The notes under the pieces are model-generated. The model was not told where the DNA came from. It saw only the letters and a list, made by a program, of their open reading frames with translations, and made no database searches. From the NCBI GenBank assembly GCA_029261055.1, contig JAJDCA010000053.1, positions 24,177-88,176 on the forward strand: 64,000 bases of DNA. Reading direction: 5' to 3'. Each line of letters starts with the position of its first letter. Within the stretch, counting starts at the first letter, position 1. Below are positions 23,564-52,766 of the stretch, piece by piece. The stretch comes from Candidatus Omnitrophota bacterium. Its GTDB lineage: Bacteria; Omnitrophota; Gorgyraeia; Zapsychrales; Zapsychraceae. The position numbers and the translations under genes were made by a program.

Positions 23564-26500
23564 TTATGGCGCAGACTGAATGACCACCTTATCCACATAA
23601 AGATTCCTGTCACCGCTTGAACCGTAATAATCATTTGTGAACGCAATGGCTACTTTATGCATACCTGCAGAAACATTACTGACACTCACGTACGGCCCAT
23701 ACGAAGTTGAATTTACTGTAAAATTATCCACAGCTACTTGATCTACTCTCACCTCCATTTTAGACCACTCCCCTAACACCTTTTTACCTCGTGCTCTTAT
23801 TTCAAAACTGTAACTGCCACTCGTTGGAAAATCGACCGTCTCCTCAATATATCCATTACTCCAAATATTCCAACTCCCATCACTCTTTCTTCCCCCTGTT
23901 GTTTTAGTTTCCATATTCTCTGCTTCAATTTGTATCGTAAATGGCTCCGGATCTGGTATAGGATTAGGCGGTGTTACATCTCCTCCGCTTCCACTCATTA
24001 ATGTAATATTTATTTTATCTACATAAAGATTCCTGTCGCCACTTGTACCGTAGTAATCATTTGTGAACGCAATGGCTATATTGTGTAAACCTGCAGGAAC
24101 ATCCTTAACGCTCACATATTGCCCAAATGAAGTTGAATTAACTGTAAAGTTATCCACGACAACTTGATCTACCTTCAACTCCATTTTTGACCATTCATTT
24201 AAAATGTTTTTTCCTCGTGCTCTTATTTCAAAAGTATACCTACCATCCGTTGGAAAATCGACGGCTTCTTCGATATATCCATTACTCCAGATATTCCAAC
24301 TCCCATCACTCTTTCTTCCTCCTGTTGTCTTAGTTCCCATATTCTCAGCCTCAATTTGTATCACAAATGGTGCTGGATCTGGTGTAGGCTCCGGCGTGGG
24401 ATCTGGTGCAGGATCAGGTGCAAGATCAGGCGTTACATCTCCTCCACTTACACTCATTAATGTAATATTTACTTTATCCACATAAAGATTCCTGTCACCA
24501 CTTGAACCGTAGTAATCATTCGTGAACGCAATGGCTATATTATGTAAACCTGCCGGAACATTCTTAACGCTCACATATTGCCCAAATGAAGTTGAATTAA
24601 CTAGAAAATTACCCACAACAACTTGATCTACCCTCAACTCCATTTTTGACCATTCATTTAAAATATTTTTTCCTCGTGCTCTTATTTCGAAACTGTAACT
24701 TCCATCTATTGGAAAATCGACAGCTTCTTCGATATATCCATTACTCCAGATATTCCAACTCCCATCACTCTTTTTTCCTCCTGTTGTCTTAGTTCCCATA
24801 TTCTCGGCTTCAATTTGTATCGCAAATGGTGTGAAATCAGCCATGGTCGTCACAGACGTAGACACAGATTGCCCGGATTCATTACTCATCAAATCTAAAG
24901 CTGCAACTCTATAAGAGTATGCCATTCCAGCTGTTAAACCTGTATCCGTGTGGCTAACACTTAATACATTCGTTATTAAAACGCCATCCCGATATATATT
25001 ATATCCTGTCACACCTACATTATCTGTTGATGCACTCCAGTTAAGATCTACCTGTGAAGAAGAAATCGCTATTGCACTGAGGTTCATCGGCATTGATGGG
25101 GCCTCAGTGTCAATATTAGGTACTGGAATTGGTGCTGGCAAAATATCCAGATTCAATTTTGTTACAATTACTGTATACATTCGAGGGGATTGATTCCCTC
25201 CCAAAATAATCTTTCCAGCAGAAAAATTCTTTGCTAATACACTCATTGATCGAATTGATGTTGCAAGATCATCTCCGGTATCTACAAATCCTGACAACCA
25301 TGCAGGCTTATCCGTTTGCCTATTGTCATAAGTTATGTATACCGTAACGTCCTGATCAACATCAAAACTCAAAAAGGTAGCACTACTGGAAGATTTGTCA
25401 TTATTGGATGTTTTAATATAGGTTGCCCCTTGAAGCTGAGAAGGAACACTACTATACATATACGTACGGTCAATATACGCCAAAACACCATTGTTCAAAC
25501 TATCATAGATCACCTGATAGGTCTCTCCACTTTCAACAGATAGATTGCTAATAACTAATGGCATTACATATCTGTATGTAATTTGTGTACCTACAGGAAT
25601 CGCGTTGGCTGAATTAGACAAGTCCCGCACATTAGAAATGCTGAGAGTGTAGGAAACACCTTCACTATGTGGTGATGTAACCAAGGTAACTGTTTTTTGA
25701 TCAACCCCTAAATAAGCATCCACAACAGAAATGCTGTTATTGATTTTATAATTAGATAATGTAGTAGCACTTATTAATTCTACCTGTTCGCTGTAAGTGA
25801 TATCTACTGTATTTCCATTGCTCCCGGCTATTACAGACATAATTCCCGGAGGAAGAATATCTGTCAAAGTACTTACTGTTGCCGAAAAACTTTTCGATGA
25901 TTCCAACCCTGTACTATTAACAGCTGACACTTCATATGTGTGAGAAGCGCCTGATGTTAATCCTGTGTTGGAAAATTGAAGAGATGATGTTTGGTTAATT
26001 TTGACACCGTCTCGATAAATATTATATGTGCTTACACTAGATTCCAAATCAATAGCTGCTGACCAATTGAGATCAATTTGAGATTCACTAACAGCAATTC
26101 CACTAAGATTTTGAGGTGTTGAAGGTGGCGTTGTATCTGGCGTTGAAGGCCCGCCTTCAAGTTCCTTCATAATTTTAAAAAATTCACCACTATGCAAAAT
26201 GGTCTCATAACCATAAAATCCTAACGAAGATGATCCTCTTGATCGAACAACCTTCCAATCATCATAAGCTGCTTCAGCAATGGCACGCCATTTTGGAGCC
26301 GTATCATACCATTGTGAATTTGTTCCTTCCCCATTGTCGTAAAGCTTCCATAAATAGGCTAAAGCATACATCAGATGTGTGCTTCCTCCATCCGTGTTAC
26401 GTGAAGCTTCGGAATAAACAAAATAGGGATGTGATTTTAAATTTTCTTCCCAACCAAATTTCACAACAAAGTTCATGGTTTGCAATAACATCTCTTTTAT

Positions 26501-28798
26501 AAGAGAAGCATCTACATAACTATAATCTTTATCTGTTTCATAAAATTTAATCAAGGAAGCTAAAACAGACCCTGCCATCCAGGGATTAGTTCCGTTATAA
26601 AGCAACTTACCTTGTTTATATTCTGATGGCCACGGAGAATTATCTTGTCGTGGATACATATGCCACCAGCCCGTTCCTTGTGTCCAATCATTCTGACCAA
26701 CAACGGTCCCATTCACCCAATGTTCGGATGGCATCTGCCACCATTGAATAAGATGATTAACTTCCTGGGCTGCCGCTTGAAGATATTTAGTATCTCCCGT
26801 CGCCCTAAAAACTTCATTCATGACAAACAACGGCCAGCCAAAATCCCGTTCAGCCTCACCCCAATGCTCATTACCTACAGGTGTTGGGAAAAAAACAGGG
26901 ATAGCTTTGGCCCACCAATTTCCTACCTCTTTAATAACACCCAATGAACGCTTGTCTCCCGTCAAAATATAATAATCCGGCAGCCCTGAAACATGGGCAT
27001 GTCCCTTATGAATGTTTCTCGAGTTATGATCGTGTACATCATGCTTAATCATATGCCCTTCACCGGGCCCGAAATCTTTATTGCCCCATGGCCCACCGCG
27101 ACGGTCAGTATGCGAAACATCAACATCCATCCAATGGCGTGAAGCCTTTTCAGCTAATTCCCACCATCGTTTATCTTTCGTACGAAGATATTGGATAAAA
27201 TACTGATGCGCCCCGACATGTGTGTCATTATAAAATGCAGGTATGCGTACCCCATTAGAACTTGTCCCATCCCAACCGGCCCGCATACGGTCACCAAAAT
27301 CTCGCCAACCATACATAACCGTAATACCTCCAGTATCTTTTTTATCTTCAATGCTTCTCTTATAATATCCACTGATCAAATTATCATCATAACCAGCTGA
27401 CCAAGGACCAGCCTCAACCATATCCCCAAATACTTTTGATTGGGCATACCATGTAGCAGGTGCTGTCACTAATGGATAATGCGCTTGAAAAACTTTATTA
27501 TGATTACTGATATCCGCTATGGATTTACTCTGATTGTGGAAATCAAATAGAATTTGATACGTCTTTGCCCCACCTTCTCGAGAAAAATAAAATGTATTTG
27601 GCCTTTTGTATTTTTTATTGACTGCATCATGTGGCGGATACGAAAGATCCGGCGTTGGTGACGAAGCTCGTGTTGGGTGAAGGTAAGCAATTAATGCATT
27701 ATTTTCAATAGCAAACTCTTTTGGATATTGCTGCCAAAAATCTTTAATCATCACACCCACACCAGATCCAGTATTATTGCTACTCACGTCCATCCATCCA
27801 GGGGCCTTTGCTCCTGAACCAGCGCCTTCATAACCAAAATCAAATGGTTGCAATCCACCATCAATATAATTCATATCCCCATGCTGATATAAGTAATGAT
27901 TCCCTGACACTGGACCGGTGAGTGTTTGATTATTTTCTCCACCAAATGCATACATCGCATTAGAAAGATTAAGAGGAAGTTTCAAACCATATCCCGTGAC
28001 ACTTAATGCTAATTGACTACGGGAAGCGGCCACATCCTTTTCTAAACGTGTATCCACTAAAGTATAATCCATTTGAATTTGACCTTGCCCAGCATAAGCA
28101 TACAACCAGACAATAAAATCCGTTAAAGTGCTACCATTGTCCGTTTGGAGCTTACCTTCTACCTTAACTGTCATACGAATCGGTCCGCTTTCCTCTATTG
28201 TATAAACCGGCTGCGTAAATAAGGAGGAAGAGTATTCTAAATTGTCGAAGGCATTAATAAGGAAAATTTTACCTGGCTGGCTCATCATTTTTTCAGAATC
28301 GTCATAAAATCCATCCGCATTATTATCCACCCAAACCTGATCAAATACTGTAAACGCACTCTTATTTAATTCAAATTGAATAGCCCCCGTATCAACGAGA
28401 ATTGATGACCCATTATCTACGTAAGAAAGCCCTTCACTATAAGTGGAATGGCTAACGCCTGATCCATACTGGAGAACATAATCTGTTGTTAAATTTGTTG
28501 ATATATCAGAGGCAAAATGAACTAAAATAGATTTGTAGCTGCTGTCCGGCCATTGAACAAGACCTTCAAATTGAGCGGGTATTTCAACACCACCCAAGTT
28601 TTCCAGACGCAAATTATTTAAAGAAGTCACCGCTCCCCTTGGAAAGGGAACACCTGTTGAAACCATGTAATTATTAACATCGGCTGAACCTGCATCCACA
28701 GTTAGAGTAACACTATTTTGAGCGTTGACATTTTGAATTTCTCCGGAAGTTGTCAGAATCACAGAAGCGACCAATAATATGAGCATTTTATTTTTCAT
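23564..28798 (-). CDS. Large secreted multidomain protein: signal peptide, an N-terminal domain of about 800 aa (possible glycan-active or binding fold), two FN3 modules with Ig-like spacers, and three tandem C-terminal carbohydrate-binding modules (CBM6/35-like) joined by Pro/Thr-rich linkers.
   Basis: The signal peptide is MKNKMLILLVASVILTTSGEIQNVNA, with an AGGAGG RBS 7 nt upstream. The FN3-like repeats read ...NLSGIAVSESQIDLNWSA...YNIYRDG.... There are three IQIEAENMGTKTTGG(K/R)KSDGSWNIWSNGYIEE...FTNDYYG(S/T)SGDRNLYVDK units. The linkers read PDLAPDPAPDPTPEPTPDPAP. Confidence 0.7.
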   Translation of the reverse strand: MKNKMLILLVASVILTTSGEIQNVNAQNSVTLTVDAGSADVNNYMVSTGVPFPRGAVTSLNNLRLENLGGVEIPAQFEGLVQWPDSSYKSILVHFASDISTNLTTDYVLQYGSGVSHSTYSEGLSYVDNGSSILVDTGAIQFELNKSAFTVFDQVWVDNNADGFYDDSEKMMSQPGKIFLINAFDNLEYSSSLFTQPVYTIEESGPIRMTVKVEGKLQTDNGSTLTDFIVWLYAYAGQGQIQMDYTLVDTRLEKDVAASRSQLALSVTGYGLKLPLNLSNAMYAFGGENNQTLTGPVSGNHYLYQHGDMNYIDGGLQPFDFGYEGAGSGAKAPGWMDVSSNNTGSGVGVMIKDFWQQYPKEFAIENNALIAYLHPTRASSPTPDLSYPPHDAVNKKYKRPNTFYFSREGGAKTYQILFDFHNQSKSIADISNHNKVFQAHYPLVTAPATWYAQSKVFGDMVEAGPWSAGYDDNLISGYYKRSIEDKKDTGGITVMYGWRDFGDRMRAGWDGTSSNGVRIPAFYNDTHVGAHQYFIQYLRTKDKRWWELAEKASRHWMDVDVSHTDRRGGPWGNKDFGPGEGHMIKHDVHDHNSRNIHKGHAHVSGLPDYYILTGDKRSLGVIKEVGNWWAKAIPVFFPTPVGNEHWGEAERDFGWPLFVMNEVFRATGDTKYLQAAAQEVNHLIQWWQMPSEHWVNGTVVGQNDWTQGTGWWHMYPRQDNSPWPSEYKQGKLLYNGTNPWMAGSVLASLIKFYETDKDYSYVDASLIKEMLLQTMNFVVKFGWEENLKSHPYFVYSEASRNTDGGSTHLMYALAYLWKLYDNGEGTNSQWYDTAPKWRAIAEAAYDDWKVVRSRGSSSLGFYGYETILHSGEFFKIMKELEGGPSTPDTTPPSTPQNLSGIAVSESQIDLNWSAAIDLESSVSTYNIYRDGVKINQTSSLQFSNTGLTSGASHTYEVSAVNSTGLESSKSFSATVSTLTDILPPGIMSVIAGSNGNTVDITYSEQVELISATTLSNYKINNSISVVDAYLGVDQKTVTLVTSPHSEGVSYTLSISNVRDLSNSANAIPVGTQITYRYVMPLVISNLSVESGETYQVIYDSLNNGVLAYIDRTYMYSSVPSQLQGATYIKTSNNDKSSSSATFLSFDVDQDVTVYITYDNRQTDKPAWLSGFVDTGDDLATSIRSMSVLAKNFSAGKIILGGNQSPRMYTVIVTKLNLDILPAPIPVPNIDTEAPSMPMNLSAIAISSSQVDLNWSASTDNVGVTGYNIYRDGVLITNVLSVSHTDTGLTAGMAYSYRVAALDLMSNESGQSVSTSVTTMADFTPFAIQIEAENMGTKTTGGKKSDGSWNIWSNGYIEEAVDFPIDGSYSFEIRARGKNILNEWSKMELRVDQVVVGNFLVNSTSFGQYVSVKNVPAGLHNIAIAFTNDYYGSSGDRNLYVDKVNITLMSVSGGDVTPDLAPDPAPDPTPEPTPDPAPFVIQIEAENMGTKTTGGRKSDGSWNIWSNGYIEEAVDFPTDGRYTFEIRARGKNILNEWSKMELKVDQVVVDNFTVNSTSFGQYVSVKDVPAGLHNIAIAFTNDYYGTSGDRNLYVDKINITLMSGSGGDVTPPNPIPDPEPFTIQIEAENMETKTTGGRKSDGSWNIWSNGYIEETVDFPTSGSYSFEIRARGKKVLGEWSKMEVRVDQVAVDNFTVNSTSYGPYVSVSNVSAGMHKVAIAFTNDYYGSSGDRNLYVDKVVIQSAP
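23583..24840. repeat. Intragenic tandem repeat of about 440-455 bp, three copies, encoding the three CBM units.
   Basis: Near-identical blocks begin at about 23583, 24010 and 24465 (...ccacataaagattcctgtc(a/g)cc(g/a)cttg(a/t)accgta...). Copies 2 and 3 are more similar to each other than to copy 1. Confidence 0.75.
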
Positions 28799-28990: not shown

Positions 28991-29444
28991 CATCCTATTA
29001 TTGACGCGTTTGCGCCTTTGTCTTTTTAATAAAATCTTCTGACTAATAGGTAGCTGGCTACCCTGCTTCTATCCTGCAGGGCCCTTGGCTTTGTGCCCCA
29101 TCCTTACGAATGGTTTACCTTTTTCTATTTCCATTGAAAGTATAACATGAAAAGATCGATGCGCAAGGGACCGGGAGGAACTTTATACAATTTTTTTATA
29201 CGGGGGATTAAAAACTATAGCGGAAGAAAACACAACTCATTGCAATCGTGCAAATTACAAAAAAATAAAATAACCTAAATTTTTTTAATATATTAAATTT
29301 TTTTGCATTTTAATTTTGACGCACTATGACAACAATGGACATACTATGACATTTAGGAGCCAAGCAGAAATAACTTCCCTAATTTTTACGACGTTCTTAA
29401 CGCAAGGAGGCAGAATAAAGAAGAAAATTATTTTTGCTTGGTCT

Positions 29445-49228: not shown

Positions 49229-52200
49229 CTATTTCCTTTGGAACAACCCTTGCACATCCGCAACCGGTTTAATACTGTACACAAACGGTACAAGGCCGCT
49301 CTCAATATCCATAATATCCATTTCATTCATCCCTTTCTCAAACATCGCCATATCCACCGATGTACCCTGAATCTGAAGATCAAGCTGCTCCGCATCCAAA
49401 TCAATCCCGCCTTTGTCTTGCACCAACATTGTTTTATTAGAAAAAGTATCCTGACTATACAGCTCTCCCATCCCTCGCACACCGTCTACCCCAACCAAAT
49501 TACCATTGGGAACACCTTTACCTTGAACCAATACATAAAAACCAAGTTCCCTCAACTCATTTAGGGTACTGTAAAGTATTGAACGTGCTAAAGGTAGAGT
49601 ATTCCGAATGATATTTGAGAAAAATTGTGCTTGCGTTTCAATCTTATTTAAATTAAATCCCACAGTATCTCCCGTTTTTTCCAAAAACTTAAAATCAATA
49701 TGAGACGTTATGTCGACTTTTCCTGGATAACCATAAATATACTTAAACGCATCACTCTGTGAATCTCTAAAGTCAAAATCACTATGCATAGCTGCAATAT
49801 GCCCTCCTTGAAGCGGTAAATCTCCGATTGAAAAACCATAATCTACTGTAATAACATAACCTCTTTTCAAACTATCAAAAATACTCTTTTGCCAACGCAA
49901 TAAATCTAAATTGACAACAAGCCCCTTATTTTCCAAAGTTTGATTAACATCATCACTTCCATGGATATTTCGTAAAGCCTTTATGTAGTCAGTAATTCCT
50001 TGATCCGACACATCTCCTAACATTTCAAAAAACTTTCCATTTTGATATCCAACATACACTTCTTTTAATTTTCCAAATTCATCTTTCTTCACACGATGCA
50101 CAGGAAAAGCATCGGGCAATTCATTAGAAATAATCACGCCTTCAATATTTTTTAGAGGCAAATCTACGGCTGAACCTTCAACCAATTTGATGGGATACCC
50201 TGTATCATTTAAATGCTTACGCTGCTTTTTTGTCATTCCAGAACCAATTTCCACTATCACATATCTCAATTTTGCAAAAAAATCAGGATGTATCTCCTTT
50301 ACGTAACCTAAAAGATCTTTGGCCATCGCTCCATTACCCGCTCCCATTTCCACAATTTGAAATGAAGATGGACTCCCCATATTTTGCCACATCTGGAAAA
50401 TCTGTTCTCCAATTGTCGCACCAAAAAAATTCGTTTCTTCTGCATATGTCATAAAATCGACATCCTTTGGAGAAGCACTTGAAGGCCCGATCCTTGCATT
50501 CCCCCCCGAATAATACCCATCCTCCGAATAAAGCGAAATATCCATAAAATCCCGAAACGTAATTTTGCCGTTTGATTCGGCAATACGTTGCTCTAAAAGC
50601 CTTTTCACACTCACTAAGCTAGCATTGTCGTTAAGTTGCACGTTTTCCTTAAAGAAATTAGCAATTTTACTCAAGGTTTCCGGTGATCTTCTGGAGTACC
50701 AGTACCTACCTCTAATTTTTTTATAAAAATTGCCATATTCAACAAAATTCTCTTTTGTTAAATAAAATGGTGCATATCCCATTTTTAAAAATACATAATT
50801 AATAATAAAATTTATGGATCGATGATTACCATTTACAAATGGATGAATTTTATGTAAATCAAAGAATAATTCAGCCACTACATTAAATATTTCATTGTCA
50901 TTTTTTTTCAATCGGGATGCTGTTCTTTTACCAAATAACTTATTAAGAATTTTTTCTGTATGTTCCTCTTTAAAACCCCCATTTAAATAAATTCGAGAAT
51001 TTTTGTCATTAACACGAATAATTCCATTTAACCGCTCAAATAACTCCTTAAATTTTCTTGAATCCATTGGTTCATTTAAAATTTCATTAAAAAACATGGT
51101 TGCATTTTTGTAGTTTTCAATAATTTTAGAATCAAAATCAAAATCGTCATAAGGTAAAGACACTTCTGATTCCTGAACTATTTTTTTCATTTGAAAGAAA
51201 TTCTCTTCAAGGTCCTCAATAGAAATATTTTCGGAAATGATTTCTTCATACCATCGTAATTTTGATTTATCTTCTCTAAACTGCCATTCAGATGAATTTA
51301 AATGTAAAAAAGATGTTACTCGGCTAAAAGCACCTTCAAATAACATTGATGCATCATTTTCATCTAACTGTAAAGATATCATTTCTTTTAAAAGAACCCC
51401 TCCCGAGAAATATTTTCGTGGAATAATTTCTTGCGTAGCCGGATTGTATTCTTCTTTAATCAAATCATACACGCCGGTTTTGAAGGCGTGTAGGTATTTT
51501 TCATACACTTGCTTCTTTGCATCTTGCACCTCTGCCTCTAGACCGCCAACCTTCTTCCGATCAGAGTATGACTTGTTGAGCAGGCTTGTTTTGAGTGTCT
51601 TTTTGTACCAGCTAGCGAGGATGAAGGAATGGTAAACTTGGCGGAGTGGAGCGAAGGTTTGACCTTCGTTGACTTCGTGTTCGATTTCGGGAATTATGAT
51701 GTCACGAATAATTTTGGAAATATTGTCAGAATTATTGTAGGGGAGGGGCTTGCCCCCTCCCGTATTACGGGCGGGCGCAAGGCCCGCCCCTACGTTGTGT
51801 TCCATTGCCAAACCTGCCTGCCGGTAGGCAAGGTAGTCCTCCTCCAACATCACCTTCAACCGCGACTCCACTACAAAAGCACGATCCACATTCTCGTACA
51901 CCAATGCCTTCTCCGGAACAATCCATACCTTGTTAAACGTGTCGATCGGGATATCGATGACACCATACTTGGCCTGTGCTTCGGCGTACACCCGTTCCCA
52001 AAATTCTTCGCCCAGATCTCCTTCCGGATGCATCAAAGAAGCCGTCAATTGTTTAAGCAAGTAATCTTGTTCTAACAAAACTTGCCCCATCGCAGTTCGA
52101 CCGAATTCATCCGGGATAATCCGATCGGCTTCGTACGGAGACAAATTGACCCATAGGTCATCCTCCGGCAGTGTCAATGATGTCAGGAAATATTTAATCA

Positions 52201-52411
52201 ATTTTTCTGACTCTGCCTTCATCGCCCCACCATCCATTGTATCGTCCCCATTATCCAAAATAAAATCAAACTGAAATGGTTGCCCCGGATGCACAATCAT
52301 CCCGCGTAATGTAGGCGGCGCATACGCTGACGTCAGCGGCATAATTTCCTCAGTTACGCCCAAAACGCAAAAAACACTACACAATAATGTTGTAATTAAG
52401 ATTTTCTTCAT
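49229..52411 (-). CDS. Secreted multidomain protein: signal peptide, an N-terminal domain of unknown function, a Doc/Fic-fold domain with a non-canonical motif, and a C-terminal MidA/NDUFAF7 (DUF185) SAM-dependent methyltransferase domain.
   Basis: The signal peptide is MKKILITTLLCSVFCVLGVTEE. The Fic/Doc core reads LHKIHPFVNGNHRSINFIINYVFLKMGY and fits the Doc pattern HxFx(D/N)(A/G)N(K)R. The MidA blocks read ...LYSEDGYYSGG...VDFMTYAEETNFFGATIGEQIFQMW...IVEMGAGNGAMAKDLL.... Confidence 0.7.
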   Translation of the reverse strand: MKKILITTLLCSVFCVLGVTEEIMPLTSAYAPPTLRGMIVHPGQPFQFDFILDNGDDTMDGGAMKAESEKLIKYFLTSLTLPEDDLWVNLSPYEADRIIPDEFGRTAMGQVLLEQDYLLKQLTASLMHPEGDLGEEFWERVYAEAQAKYGVIDIPIDTFNKVWIVPEKALVYENVDRAFVVESRLKVMLEEDYLAYRQAGLAMEHNVGAGLAPARNTGGGKPLPYNNSDNISKIIRDIIIPEIEHEVNEGQTFAPLRQVYHSFILASWYKKTLKTSLLNKSYSDRKKVGGLEAEVQDAKKQVYEKYLHAFKTGVYDLIKEEYNPATQEIIPRKYFSGGVLLKEMISLQLDENDASMLFEGAFSRVTSFLHLNSSEWQFREDKSKLRWYEEIISENISIEDLEENFFQMKKIVQESEVSLPYDDFDFDSKIIENYKNATMFFNEILNEPMDSRKFKELFERLNGIIRVNDKNSRIYLNGGFKEEHTEKILNKLFGKRTASRLKKNDNEIFNVVAELFFDLHKIHPFVNGNHRSINFIINYVFLKMGYAPFYLTKENFVEYGNFYKKIRGRYWYSRRSPETLSKIANFFKENVQLNDNASLVSVKRLLEQRIAESNGKITFRDFMDISLYSEDGYYSGGNARIGPSSASPKDVDFMTYAEETNFFGATIGEQIFQMWQNMGSPSSFQIVEMGAGNGAMAKDLLGYVKEIHPDFFAKLRYVIVEIGSGMTKKQRKHLNDTGYPIKLVEGSAVDLPLKNIEGVIISNELPDAFPVHRVKKDEFGKLKEVYVGYQNGKFFEMLGDVSDQGITDYIKALRNIHGSDDVNQTLENKGLVVNLDLLRWQKSIFDSLKRGYVITVDYGFSIGDLPLQGGHIAAMHSDFDFRDSQSDAFKYIYGYPGKVDITSHIDFKFLEKTGDTVGFNLNKIETQAQFFSNIIRNTLPLARSILYSTLNELRELGFYVLVQGKGVPNGNLVGVDGVRGMGELYSQDTFSNKTMLVQDKGGIDLDAEQLDLQIQGTSVDMAMFEKGMNEMDIMDIESGLVPFVYSIKPVADVQGLFQRK
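51745..51845. repeat. GC-rich palindromic block embedded in-frame in the Doc/Fic gene.
   Basis: The hairpins are gaggggcttgcccctc, gggcgggcgcaaggcccgccc and cctgcctgccggtaggcaagg. The last is the reverse complement, with one mismatch, of ccttgcctactggcaggcagg at 30100-30120. On the minus strand the block encodes about 30 aa (...GAGLAPARNTGGGKPLPY...). Confidence 0.6.
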
Positions 52412-52521
52412 AATATTTAGTATTAATAGATTTAATAAGACACTACGAAGTATACCATATGGAAAGACGCCTTTACCAACCCGCTAAAATCCAAGTCAAA
52501 GACTCCTCACAAAACATGGGA

Positions 52522-52564
52522 ATCCAGGCTCACAGGCTCCGCGGAGCCTGTGAGCCTGGATTTT
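52522..52564 (+). terminator. Perfect GC-rich hairpin followed by a T-tract, oriented as an intrinsic terminator on the plus strand.
   Basis: atccaggctcacaggctccgc|ggagcctgtgagcctggat followed by ttttt. It lies within the 356-bp region between the Doc/Fic gene start and the CBS gene stop. Confidence 0.5.
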
Positions 52565-52766
52565 TCAACCGTTCAAGGCGAAACCTAATCAAGGGTATGA
52601 AGCCCAGAGCAAGCCCTGGACTCTATCTGTCGCAGTTAGGAGGCAATCCCAGGATTGTCTCTTTGCTGCGGAGTAATGAATCTCCTCGGGGTAAACCTCG
52701 GGGAATTAGACCCTTTTGGAATTTCGTTAAAGCATCGAAATTCCTTAATAAAAAGCTCTTGATTGA

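Follow-up and report, generated by a model that had tools for sequence, protein, structure and literature searches.

The open reading frame at 49229..52411 on the minus strand of the 64,000-nt window (the whole stretch of DNA that was analysed; the coordinates include the stop codon) is real, as the first-pass annotation had proposed, and its product of 1060 aa is best explained, with a probability of roughly 0.6, as a cysteine-free exported modular enzyme carrier of an Omnitrophota family, possibly one that delivers effectors. The identity of the protein is set by aa 25-345 and aa 1001-1060, two conserved family modules that the earlier reading overlooked, and not by its Fic/methyltransferase pair; the two domains that had been called, Fic and methyltransferase, are both real, but two thirds of the architecture had been missed. 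To judge from its sequence, the protein has the N-module following a signal-like segment, the tail, the junctions, and the depletion in cysteine that characterize the family. The family itself is very large and apparently undescribed, and combines a shared export-type chassis with interchangeable enzyme modules. This chassis consists of a Sec-type N-terminal signal, an N-module of ~320 aa and a tail of ~60 aa; one to many cargo modules, mostly homologs of cytoplasm-type enzymes, are inserted between N-module and tail and set apart by short disordered linkers with a D-x-(A/S)-M-L-type motif.

The N-module (51377..52339, minus strand; aa 25-345) is common to the Omnitrophota family; aa ~25-340 of the query are covered by 119 of 119 relatives at 46-71% identity, 32 columns are invariant, and the structural model predicts a mixed alpha/beta fold. 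Searches of Pfam, NCBIfam and PDB, by sequence or structure, returned no relatives of this module; it occurs in more than 4,200 proteins, among them the 3,731-aa protein P0162, and at no fewer than 583 loci in species-representative genomes, nearly all of them Omnitrophota and multi-copy, with up to four loci per MAG among the best 80. No paralogs of the gene were found within the window. The C-terminal tail (49232..49411, minus strand; aa 1001-1060), which reads GGIDLD...LDLQIQG...GLVPFVYSIKPV...LF, has GGIDL counterparts in 98 of 120 relatives; the family consensus of ~55-60 aa is GGIDLN...LxLQTQG...G(L/F)xPVIxxIxP...LLG, and the columns of G1001, G1002, I1003, D1004, G1039, P1042, I1044 and P1049 are invariant or nearly so. 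The tail matched neither PDB sequences nor NCBIfam models, and an NCBIfam search with 46 family tails yielded no meaningful match; the models searched include the T9SS CTD and further sorting models of the CTERM kind. In the protein as a whole, sorting domains such as T9SS CTD, PEP-CTERM, LPXTG and GlyGly-CTERM gave no NCBIfam match at E<=1. Downstream of the N-module the Pfam domains of the 119 relatives are unrelated to each other; the cargo between N-module and tail includes kinases, PGK, NUDIX, glycosyltransferases and others, enzymes that need ATP, SAM, acyl-CoA or NDP-sugars.

The modules are delimited by a recurrent peptide motif. The pattern D.AM[LVIMFT] occurs 118 times in the family, against 4.2 ± 2.0 occurrences in shuffled sequences (28-fold enriched); in 63 of 119 relatives such a motif directly follows the N-module, it is found between Pfam domains as well, and the inter-module linkers are modeled with low pLDDT. 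The 1060-aa protein has three such junctions, all on the minus strand. Junction 1 (51338..51364; aa 350-358, DENDASMLF) is a low-confidence linker just past the N-module, and its DASML (aa 353-357) is a canonical D-x-(A/S)-M-L delimiter; junction 2 (50609..50635; aa 593-601, LNDNASLVS) separates the Fic-like from the methyltransferase module, with a degenerate delimiter core NASLV (aa 596-600) where the confidence of the model is lower; junction 3 (49412..49450; aa 988-1000, DTFSNKTMLVQDK) lies just before the tail and contains a degenerate, delimiter-like N-K-T-M-L (aa 992-996). The junction motif is written in mixed codons, and the signal is therefore one at the peptide level; a DNA recombination site at these positions is rejected on the same observation.

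The protein begins with a signal-like segment (52340..52411, minus strand; aa 1-24) of MKK and a 16-residue hydrophobic core, MKKILITTLLCSVFCVLGV, which is the sole hydrophobic segment of the protein; an n-region and an h-region are present, and the N-terminus is signal-like, as had been postulated. A hydrophobic core followed by AxA-Q-type sites was seen in 82 of 89 family N-termini. In the 1060-aa protein this AxA-Q cleavage site is deleted and SAYA precedes a Pro; a possible cleavage site falls between V-L-G and the next V, and direct reading of the sequence found no lipobox before either Cys of the segment. The lost AxA-Q site, the Pro after SAYA and an SD-like GAGGA before M24, the NCBI start, are observations that run against export. 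Both cysteines of the protein sit in aa 1-24, leaving a mature part with 0 Cys, which has a chance of ~1e-5 in 1036 aa; the Cys frequency of the family is 0.0009, compared to 0.0111 in the other ORFs of the window (12-fold depletion), and 64 of 119 family members have no Cys at all.

The first of the two cargo modules is a divergent, AT-rich Fic-fold module (50636..51253, minus strand; aa 387-592) that starts at a conserved W-Y. The Fic fold had been proposed for this middle domain, with profile HMM searches and structure prediction as the suggested checks; these recovered both the Fic fold and Methyltransf_28. The Pfam Fic match (PF02661, aa 484-539) is marginal, with 24.8 bits against a cutoff of 24; the profile of the Fic subfamily matches FICD with E=2.4e-20, the AF2 model of the module has a pLDDT of 87.4 and a pTM of 0.84, and the top 50 Foldseek matches in the PDB are all Fic proteins (TM 0.5-0.57, probability 1.0). 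The Fic relatives were obtained by exhaustive HMMER search; word-index searches with the Fic region or profile gave nothing useful. The signature loop (50810..50845, minus strand), H523-P-F-V-N-G-N-H530-R531-S-I-N534 with the core HPFVNGNHRS at aa 523-532, keeps the His, Phe, G1, Asn and R1 positions and has D/E changed to N, G2 to H, and R2 to N; it departs from the canonical AMPylator signature HxFx(D/E)GNGRxxR. In the model, pLDDT is low for the loop that occupies the place of the target-docking flap (aa ~466-478), where relatives conserve AGxY. An inhibitory-helix motif (S/T)xxxE(G/N) is not significant: SKIIEN at aa 428-433 fits, but so do 25% of shuffled sequences, and the motif is not conserved.

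The nearest solved relatives are the class II Fic proteins FICD/HYPE, which share the fold and the alpha4-alpha5 loop with PFxxGN and R1; the subfamily differs from FICD by His or Lys at G2 (Lys in the relatives, and never Gly), by the absence of a second Arg (never found at R2), by Asn in place of D/E, by Gln at the catalytic His in 75% of its members, and by its conserved W-Y N-terminal extension and its occurrence as cargo in exported mosaic proteins of large size. The first-pass annotation had placed the motif closer to Doc than to the AMPylators, which is borne out by the G2 side chain and the missing second Arg; in overall sequence and fold, however, the module is nearest to the FICD type. 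In Doc, the EF-Tu kinase of phd-doc, a G2 side chain and the lack of R2 invert ATP binding and confer kinase activity (PMC8401265). The loop agrees with Doc at 8 of 9 signature positions, the exception being Lys to His; in contrast to Doc, the module spans ~205 aa with extra helices. Its score with the NCBIfam model DOC_P1 (TIGR01550) is 25, below the cutoff of 38.65, no Doc structures appear among its profile or fold matches, and no Phd-like antitoxin or toxin-antitoxin operon lies beside the gene, which is flanked by a CBS protein and tgt and by no small antitoxin ORF.

The second cargo module (49532..50599, minus strand; aa 605-960) is a SAM-dependent methyltransferase of the MidA/NDUFAF7 type (Methyltransf_28, DUF185), as had been recognized from the start: Pfam PF02636 matches aa 666-920 with E=6.4e-46 and 157.3 bits (cutoff 23.3) over profile positions 1-244 of 249, and SAM motif I (VEMGAGNG, aa 687-694) as well as the NELPDAFP, DYG and DITSHIDF motifs are intact. 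Alignments to the structures 4f3n and 1zkd conserve EMGAGNG, NELPDAFPVH, VDYGF and DITSHIDF, and 5ztz is a further PDB relative. The likeness to MidA/NDUFAF7 (COG1565) thus extends over the full-length Pfam match, SAM motif I, NExxDAxP, DYG and DxTxHxDF; the difference is that the present enzyme sits within a larger exported carrier protein that lacks Cys, and that a complex I context is not evident.

The gene is a GC mosaic, and the base composition of the Fic module (GC 0.264, z=-4.2) is foreign compared to the N-module (0.49) and the tail (0.46). A GC-rich in-frame insertion had been noted, and the element is genuine: 57 nt or 19 codons with a GC content of 0.74 (51737..51793, minus strand; aa 207-225, VGAGLAPARNTGGGKPLPY), located where the N-module has a variable, disordered loop. 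Two 8-bp GC hairpins in inverted orientation, ending in GTAG...CTAC, give it the layout of REP-type elements (GTAG-flanked GC-rich palindromes as an inverted pair); only one copy is present within the window, and a ~90% identical copy occupies the same N-module loop of the paralog P0019. The insertion is a REP-doublet-like element common to paralogs; selection for RNA structure is ruled out by an uncompensated stem-breaking change in P0019. The intergenic leader (52412..52766, minus strand) measures 355 nt instead of the 356 reported previously; it is structured, as had been claimed, and folds far better than shuffled sequences (z=-6.2), but the structure is mainly one terminator-like hairpin (52521..52562, minus strand), whose 19-bp stem is perfectly paired around a 4-nt loop and is followed by CCCATGTTTT; on the simplest reading, it terminates the upstream CBS-domain gene. 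An Rfam search of the leader found no family and only sub-threshold miRNA-hairpin chance matches; a riboswitch or ncRNA is ruled out, since the structure signal comes from the terminator-like hairpin.

Neither the periplasm nor the medium offers ATP or SAM, and the cargo would therefore most plausibly act inside another cell, either host or prey. The chassis would carry the protein through the cytoplasmic membrane by the Sec route, and the tail, the N-module or both may then serve in sorting, anchoring or delivery, as their position and conservation suggest; the cargo is possibly released by proteolysis at the putative processing sites of the junction motifs. Within the target cell, the methyltransferase would methylate a protein, perhaps at arginine by analogy with NDUFAF7, which dimethylates Arg85 of NDUFS2 (PMC3829151); the Fic module may carry out Doc-like phosphate transfer, or only dock to a target as most of its His-less relatives may do. 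The genes called around the locus are tgt, trmD, rplS and that of the CBS-domain protein; no secretion, protease or immunity gene flanks 49229..52411, and Pfam finds no protease domain in the protein, two observations that tell against this reading.

What the two cargo modules do together has been read differently. The first-pass annotation saw a periplasmic or secreted enzyme with two modification chemistries; on this view, Fic/Doc and MidA domains would have been fused into a purpose-built bifunctional protein to act jointly on one substrate. Both domains do share one signal-bearing polypeptide and keep their key motifs. The fusion had been noted as an unfamiliar one, and searches of 1.84 billion protein representatives, 185,579 genomes and metagenome contigs turned up the pair nowhere else. 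The same singularity argues against a dedicated enzyme, as do the closest methyltransferase-bearing relative, P0008, which has N-module, methyltransferase and tail but no Fic; the Fic-like cargo with other partners in P0018, P0121 and P0162; the foreign GC content of the Fic module; the delimiter between the two modules; and the absence of ATP and SAM from the periplasm. A dedicated two-function enzyme is not supported: the family is combinatorial, with more than 4,000 members, and the pair is a single one of its many cargo arrangements; joint action on one substrate appears quite improbable. A related question is whether the Fic module is an enzyme at all. Gln replaces the general-base His in 24 of 32 subfamily members, and in combination with the loss of G2 and R2, against which N529, R531, F525 and G528 have stayed (nearly) invariant, this suggests a non-catalytic pseudo-Fic that would dock a target or ligand via flap and anion hole, and not a Doc-like phosphotransferase; for the non-canonical Fic domains of Bep proteins, a different activity or a lack of activity is assumed (PMC8401265). 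The catalytic His, singled out earlier for inspection, is nevertheless kept in the 1060-aa protein as His523, and the Doc signature HxFx(D/N)(A/G)NKR is matched except for the change from Lys to His. A docking function has somewhat less than an even chance; since most relatives lack the catalytic His, the activity of the Fic module is uncertain, and this cargo may be non-catalytic.

The location of the protein is the second point on which readings diverge. It could be exported and yet stay with its producer, as a membrane- or surface-anchored enzyme array for the cell's own envelope or for attachment, held by an uncleaved N-terminal helix or by N-module and tail; the loss of the AxA-Q site is in keeping with such an anchor, a 2026 preprint predicts TM helices or signal peptides in 94% of long Omnitrophota proteins and discusses membrane-anchored architectures, and West-Roberts et al. 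propose roles in extracellular cell-wall processing. This appears unlikely for cargo whose cofactors and substrates, from ATP and SAM to acyl-CoA and NDP-sugars, are not expected outside the cytoplasm, and for a protein whose sole hydrophobic segment is N-terminal. The cofactor requirement would be satisfied if translation began at M24 (52340-52342) and left the hydrophobic codons untranslated, with the protein remaining cytoplasmic and the N-module bringing diverse enzymes together inside the cell, as a scaffold or assembly domain; the GAGGA 4-5 nt before M24 has no SD-like counterpart before M1, and the NCBI entry with the identical product (1037 aa) starts there. However, of the ORFs called mechanically in the window only ~40% have an SD-like motif, the in-frame codons upstream of M24 spell a textbook n-region and h-region, the hydrophobic core and AxA sites recur in 82 of 89 relatives, and the 12-fold cysteine depletion is family-wide; a start at M24 is very improbable. 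The exported carrier remains the preferred reading. In its most far-reaching form, N-module, D-x-A-M-L junctions and GGIDL tail would constitute an undescribed phylum-wide export and delivery chassis, by which Omnitrophota, as putative predators or parasites, would release combinatorial Cys-free arrays of cytoplasm-type enzymes that are cleaved at the junctions and act in host or prey; we consider this rather doubtful. If true, the proteins of ~1 kaa would grade in size into the giant "Archaeovorins," with themselves as the smallest forms, and other phyla may have comparable chassis built on different N-modules and delimiters (RSEVR, AAGLEE).

The Omnitrophota, ultra-small bacteria that have not been cultured and probably depend on a host, are understood almost wholly by way of their genomes; the giant multi-enzyme proteins of the phylum are a recognized puzzle, of which a gene for ~1,000 aa represents a compact, tractable version. 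Should the chassis serve export or delivery, thousands of proteins would become candidate effectors; the junctions would provide testable cleavage sites for the question of giant-protein processing, N-module and tail are two new domains for structural and secretion studies, and Fic biology gains a widespread subfamily with a Doc-like loop and a mostly missing catalytic His.

The giant Omnitrophota proteins ("Archaeovorins," West-Roberts et al., 2023 preprint; long-protein catalogue, 2026 preprint) are mostly predicted to be extracellular, and the literature asks whether they are cleaved into smaller polypeptides. The present family shares with them the phylum, the signal peptides, a predicted extracytoplasmic location and the cargo repertoire (methyltransferases, HATPase_c, NUDIX, glycosyltransferases, PPDK_N, TPR); in contrast to the giants of 10,000-147,000 aa, the protein has ~1,000 aa and one hydrophobic segment only, and N-module, GGIDL tail, D-x-A-M-L junctions and Cys depletion are mentioned in neither preprint. 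MARTX and polymorphic toxins are similar in their conserved termini, in enzymatic modules that are swapped between paralogs, and in short inter-module motifs that could be processing sites; yet there is no relationship in sequence or fold, the protein would be Sec-dependent and not of the T1SS type, Pfam and NCBIfam detect no RTX repeats, cysteine protease domain (CPD), TPS, Rhs or VENN in it, and the family's cargo consists mostly of housekeeping-type enzymes, with housekeeping neighbors in place of immunity genes. Finally, the substrates of T9SS also combine a signal peptide and cargo with a small conserved C-terminal domain across otherwise unrelated exported proteins; in comparison, the Omnitrophota family has a shorter tail (~55-60 aa), belongs to another phylum, and carries the conserved N-module in addition.

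The open reading frame at 49229..52411 on the minus strand is genuine, with a product of 1060 amino acids; the first-pass annotation had read it as a Fic/Doc-fold domain fused to a MidA-type methyltransferase, and Pfam matches to both domains, together with profile and fold comparisons, bear this out. The conserved N-terminal module (amino acids 25-345) and tail (amino acids 1001-1060) that flank the two enzyme modules had been overlooked; they indicate that the gene is a new member of a large, apparently undescribed modular family. A homology search with the target protein returned more than 4,211 proteins, nearly all of which align to no more than the N-terminal ~30% of the query. Among the matches listed, all 119 relatives cover the N-module region (amino acids ~25-340), with 46-71% identity and 32 invariant residues. 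Their downstream Pfam domains differ without any relation to each other; most commonly nothing is recognisable, and other relatives carry HATPase_c, protein kinase, PGK, FBPase, acyl-CoA dehydrogenase, NUDIX, aldo-keto reductase, glycosyltransferase, cytidylyltransferase, TPR or one of several methyltransferase domains. A ~55-residue tail, GGIDxN...LxLQTQG...G(L/F)xPVIxxIxP...LLG, forms the C-terminus in 98 of 120 proteins among the matches listed.

The modules are delimited by a short motif, D-x-A-M-(L/V/I/M/F/T), counted 118 times across the 119 relatives among the matches listed, versus 4.2 ± 2.0 times in shuffled sequences; in 63 of these 119 listed relatives, a motif of this type lies within 60 amino acids past the end of the N-module. 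In multi-domain members it is located between Pfam domains and never inside them. The relative P0162 has ten such sites and P0075 two, and the junctions of P0016 show SSP[VI] in its place. The motif is encoded by mixed synonymous codons, and is therefore a peptide-level signal. In the target protein, DASML (amino acids 353-357) follows the N-module within a linker of pLDDT below 50; degenerate versions separate the Fic-like and methyltransferase modules (NASLV) and precede the tail (NKTML).

A basic n-region and hydrophobic core, with AxA-Q-type sites (for example VYAQ|S) after them, were found in 82 of 89 relatives. The export signal proposed in the first pass holds for the n- and h-regions, which form the only hydrophobic segment of the target protein; the ~25 residues that bear the family cleavage site are missing, so that the segment could be either a cleaved signal or an anchor. 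The mature protein contains no cysteine, and 64 of the 119 relatives among the matches listed are entirely cysteine-free despite cargo homologous to cytoplasmic enzymes; cysteine frequency is 0.0009 in the family versus 0.0111 in the remaining ORFs of the window. This depletion supports export independently of the signal segment. A cytoplasmic protein starting at Met24 is nevertheless conceivable: at NCBI, the identical protein is annotated as a 1037-residue product with this start, on a single 100.7-kb contig, and an SD-like GAGGA is found at Met24 and none at Met1. The Met1 start encodes the family-typical signal segment (52340-52411), and a cytoplasmic location appears highly improbable. 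Two papers on Omnitrophota giant proteins (West-Roberts et al., 2023, preprint; a 2026 preprint catalogue of long proteins) mention neither N-module, tail, junction motif nor cysteine depletion, and a search for literature on Omnitrophota together with Fic found nothing.

The Fic-like module passes the Pfam Fic cutoff marginally (amino acids 484-539; 24.8 bits, cutoff 24); the sole NCBIfam match, DOC_P1, is sub-threshold (25 vs. 38.65 bits), and FICD appears weakly among the PDB sequence matches. An exhaustive HMMER search of 1.84 billion representatives with amino acids 395-612 yielded 48 relatives at E ≤ 1e-3. A profile built from 32 non-canonical sequences of this subfamily matched human FICD (E = 2.4e-20), the AF2 model has high confidence (pLDDT 87.4, pTM 0.84), and all top 50 Foldseek matches in the PDB are Fic proteins (TM 0.5-0.57); on these three lines of evidence, the Fic fold stands. 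The loop HPFVNGNHRS (amino acids 523-532) agrees with 8 of the 9 positions of the Doc signature and has His where Doc has Lys; the first pass had likewise placed it closer to Doc than to the AMPylating motif. In overall sequence and fold, however, the domain resembles FICD-type Fic domains more closely, and the antitoxin context of Doc is missing around the gene. On these grounds it is classed as a divergent Fic subfamily whose active-site loop resembles that of Doc, and not as Doc. The 32-sequence alignment shows no variation at N529 and R531 and very little at F525 and G528; at G2 it has His (n = 17) or Lys (n = 11) but never Gly, and the second Arg of the Fic signature is absent throughout. 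Canonical ATP binding is blocked when G2 carries a side chain, which is the case in Doc and accounts for its kinase activity, and the signature His acts as general base (PMC8401265); this position is occupied by Gln in 24 of 32 sequences and by His in 8, including the target. For non-canonical Fic domains, a different activity or no activity at all is possible (PMC8401265); catalysis by the target module is accordingly uncertain, and the chance that it is non-catalytic falls only slightly short of even. The resemblance of SKIIEN to an inhibitory helix was not significant.

The methyltransferase module matches Methyltransf_28 (DUF185/MidA; amino acids 666-920, E = 6.4e-46) and, in the PDB, NDUFAF7 and the DUF185 structures 4f3n and 1zkd. 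SAM motif I (VEMGAGNG) of the METHYLTRANSFERASE aligns with both structures, as do NELPDAFPVH, VDYGF and DITSHIDF; judged by these motifs, the domain seems to be intact. NDUFAF7 acts as a protein arginine methyltransferase (PMC3829151). A dedicated bifunctional enzyme, with both modules as partners in one function, would suit the presence of the two domains in one chain; the Fic-like and Methyltransf_28 pair occurs only in the product of the target gene, and no relatives of the pair were found in genome or metagenome contigs. P0008 combines N-module, methyltransferase and tail without Fic, and in P0018, P0121 and P0162 the Fic-like module is joined to different partners. At 0.264, the GC content of the Fic module is lower than in all 56 chunks from other genes (z = -4.2); that of the methyltransferase is ordinary (0.37; genome 0.39), and N-module (0.49) and tail (0.46) are GC-rich, also relative to the genome. 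The GC-rich conserved ends might reflect gene conversion among paralogs. While the first-pass observation is confirmed, its interpretation is supported only in part, and a dedicated bifunctional enzyme seems distinctly improbable. A module of the same Fic-like subfamily also occurs in giant mosaic proteins of other lineages (P0125, P0127, P0131 and P0132; also P0138, P0142, P0146 and P0122), whose conserved N-terminal module is a different one (...IQDAH...AQ...EG) and which have their own repeated delimiters (RSEVR/RAEVR, AAGLEE, SSSP, AAGAE); this suggests analogous chassis-plus-delimiter architectures outside the Omnitrophota.

The GC-rich in-frame insertion noticed in the first pass was located at 51737-51793; it is made up of two 8-bp GC hairpins in inverted orientation, with GTAG...CTAC ends, a layout like that of REP doublets, and sits in a model-disordered N-module loop that varies from 14 to 52 amino acids across the family. 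The paralogs P0005, P0011, P0015 and P0019 have nearly the same peptide at this position. The DNA of P0019 is ~90% identical to the target over the element, the N-modules being just ~48% identical, and its copy contains an uncompensated stem-breaking change; spread of the element or gene conversion therefore fits, and the same change argues against a selected RNA structure in this 57-nt element. The loop is a hot spot of in-frame GC-rich hairpin elements (loci L082, which is P0019, L014, L046 and L011); several paralogs share the 57-nt GTAG element, and other lineages have different GC hairpins there, for example gtcattcccgcgaaagcgggaatc, translated as VIPAKAGIQ. A REP- or terminator-like repeat, ATGCCCCTACA...CCGTA(A/C)GGGCATGATTCAT, occurs in four intergenic copies between minus-strand genes (6046, 13805, 21630 and 30124, plus-strand coordinates) and has its CCCCTAC/GTAGGGG core in common with the in-frame element. 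The structured leader upstream of the target gene indeed folds well (z = -6.2), mostly because of a perfect 42-nt palindrome (52521-52562, minus strand; 19-bp stem, 4-nt loop and a T-run after it); this terminator-like hairpin is separated from a CBS-domain gene upstream by ~205 nt and from the start of the target gene downstream by ~110 nt, and an Rfam search of the leader matched no family. Elsewhere, a c-di-GMP-I-GGC riboswitch (29045-29128, minus strand; 59.3 bits, just over the gathering score of 59) is located ~250 nt upstream of a 1744-residue ORF (23564-28798, minus strand) with three CBM60, a PcRGLX-like domain, fn3 domains and no cysteine; its product resembles a secreted carbohydrate-active protein under c-di-GMP control.

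The best supported reading, with a probability of about 0.6, is that the target protein is an exported modular enzyme carrier: the N-module and tail, with the signal, would take care of export and sorting, the cargo between them would be interchangeable, and it would act within a different cell, perhaps following cleavage at the junctions. Action inside another cell is implied by the ATP- and SAM-dependence of the cargo; a surface or periplasmic array retained by the producer, compatible with a signal segment that serves as anchor, is rather unlikely. Omnitrophota giant proteins are mostly predicted to be extracytoplasmic, and their processing is possible but not certain (West-Roberts et al., 2023, preprint; 2026 preprint); their domain repertoire is the same as that of the cargo in the target family, and the carrier reading fits this published picture. 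MARTX and polymorphic toxins as well as T9SS substrates are functionally among the nearest analogies, with defining features that are all absent in the target; by analogy, the protein would resemble a known general plan, in which a conserved chassis for delivery carries exchangeable effector modules.
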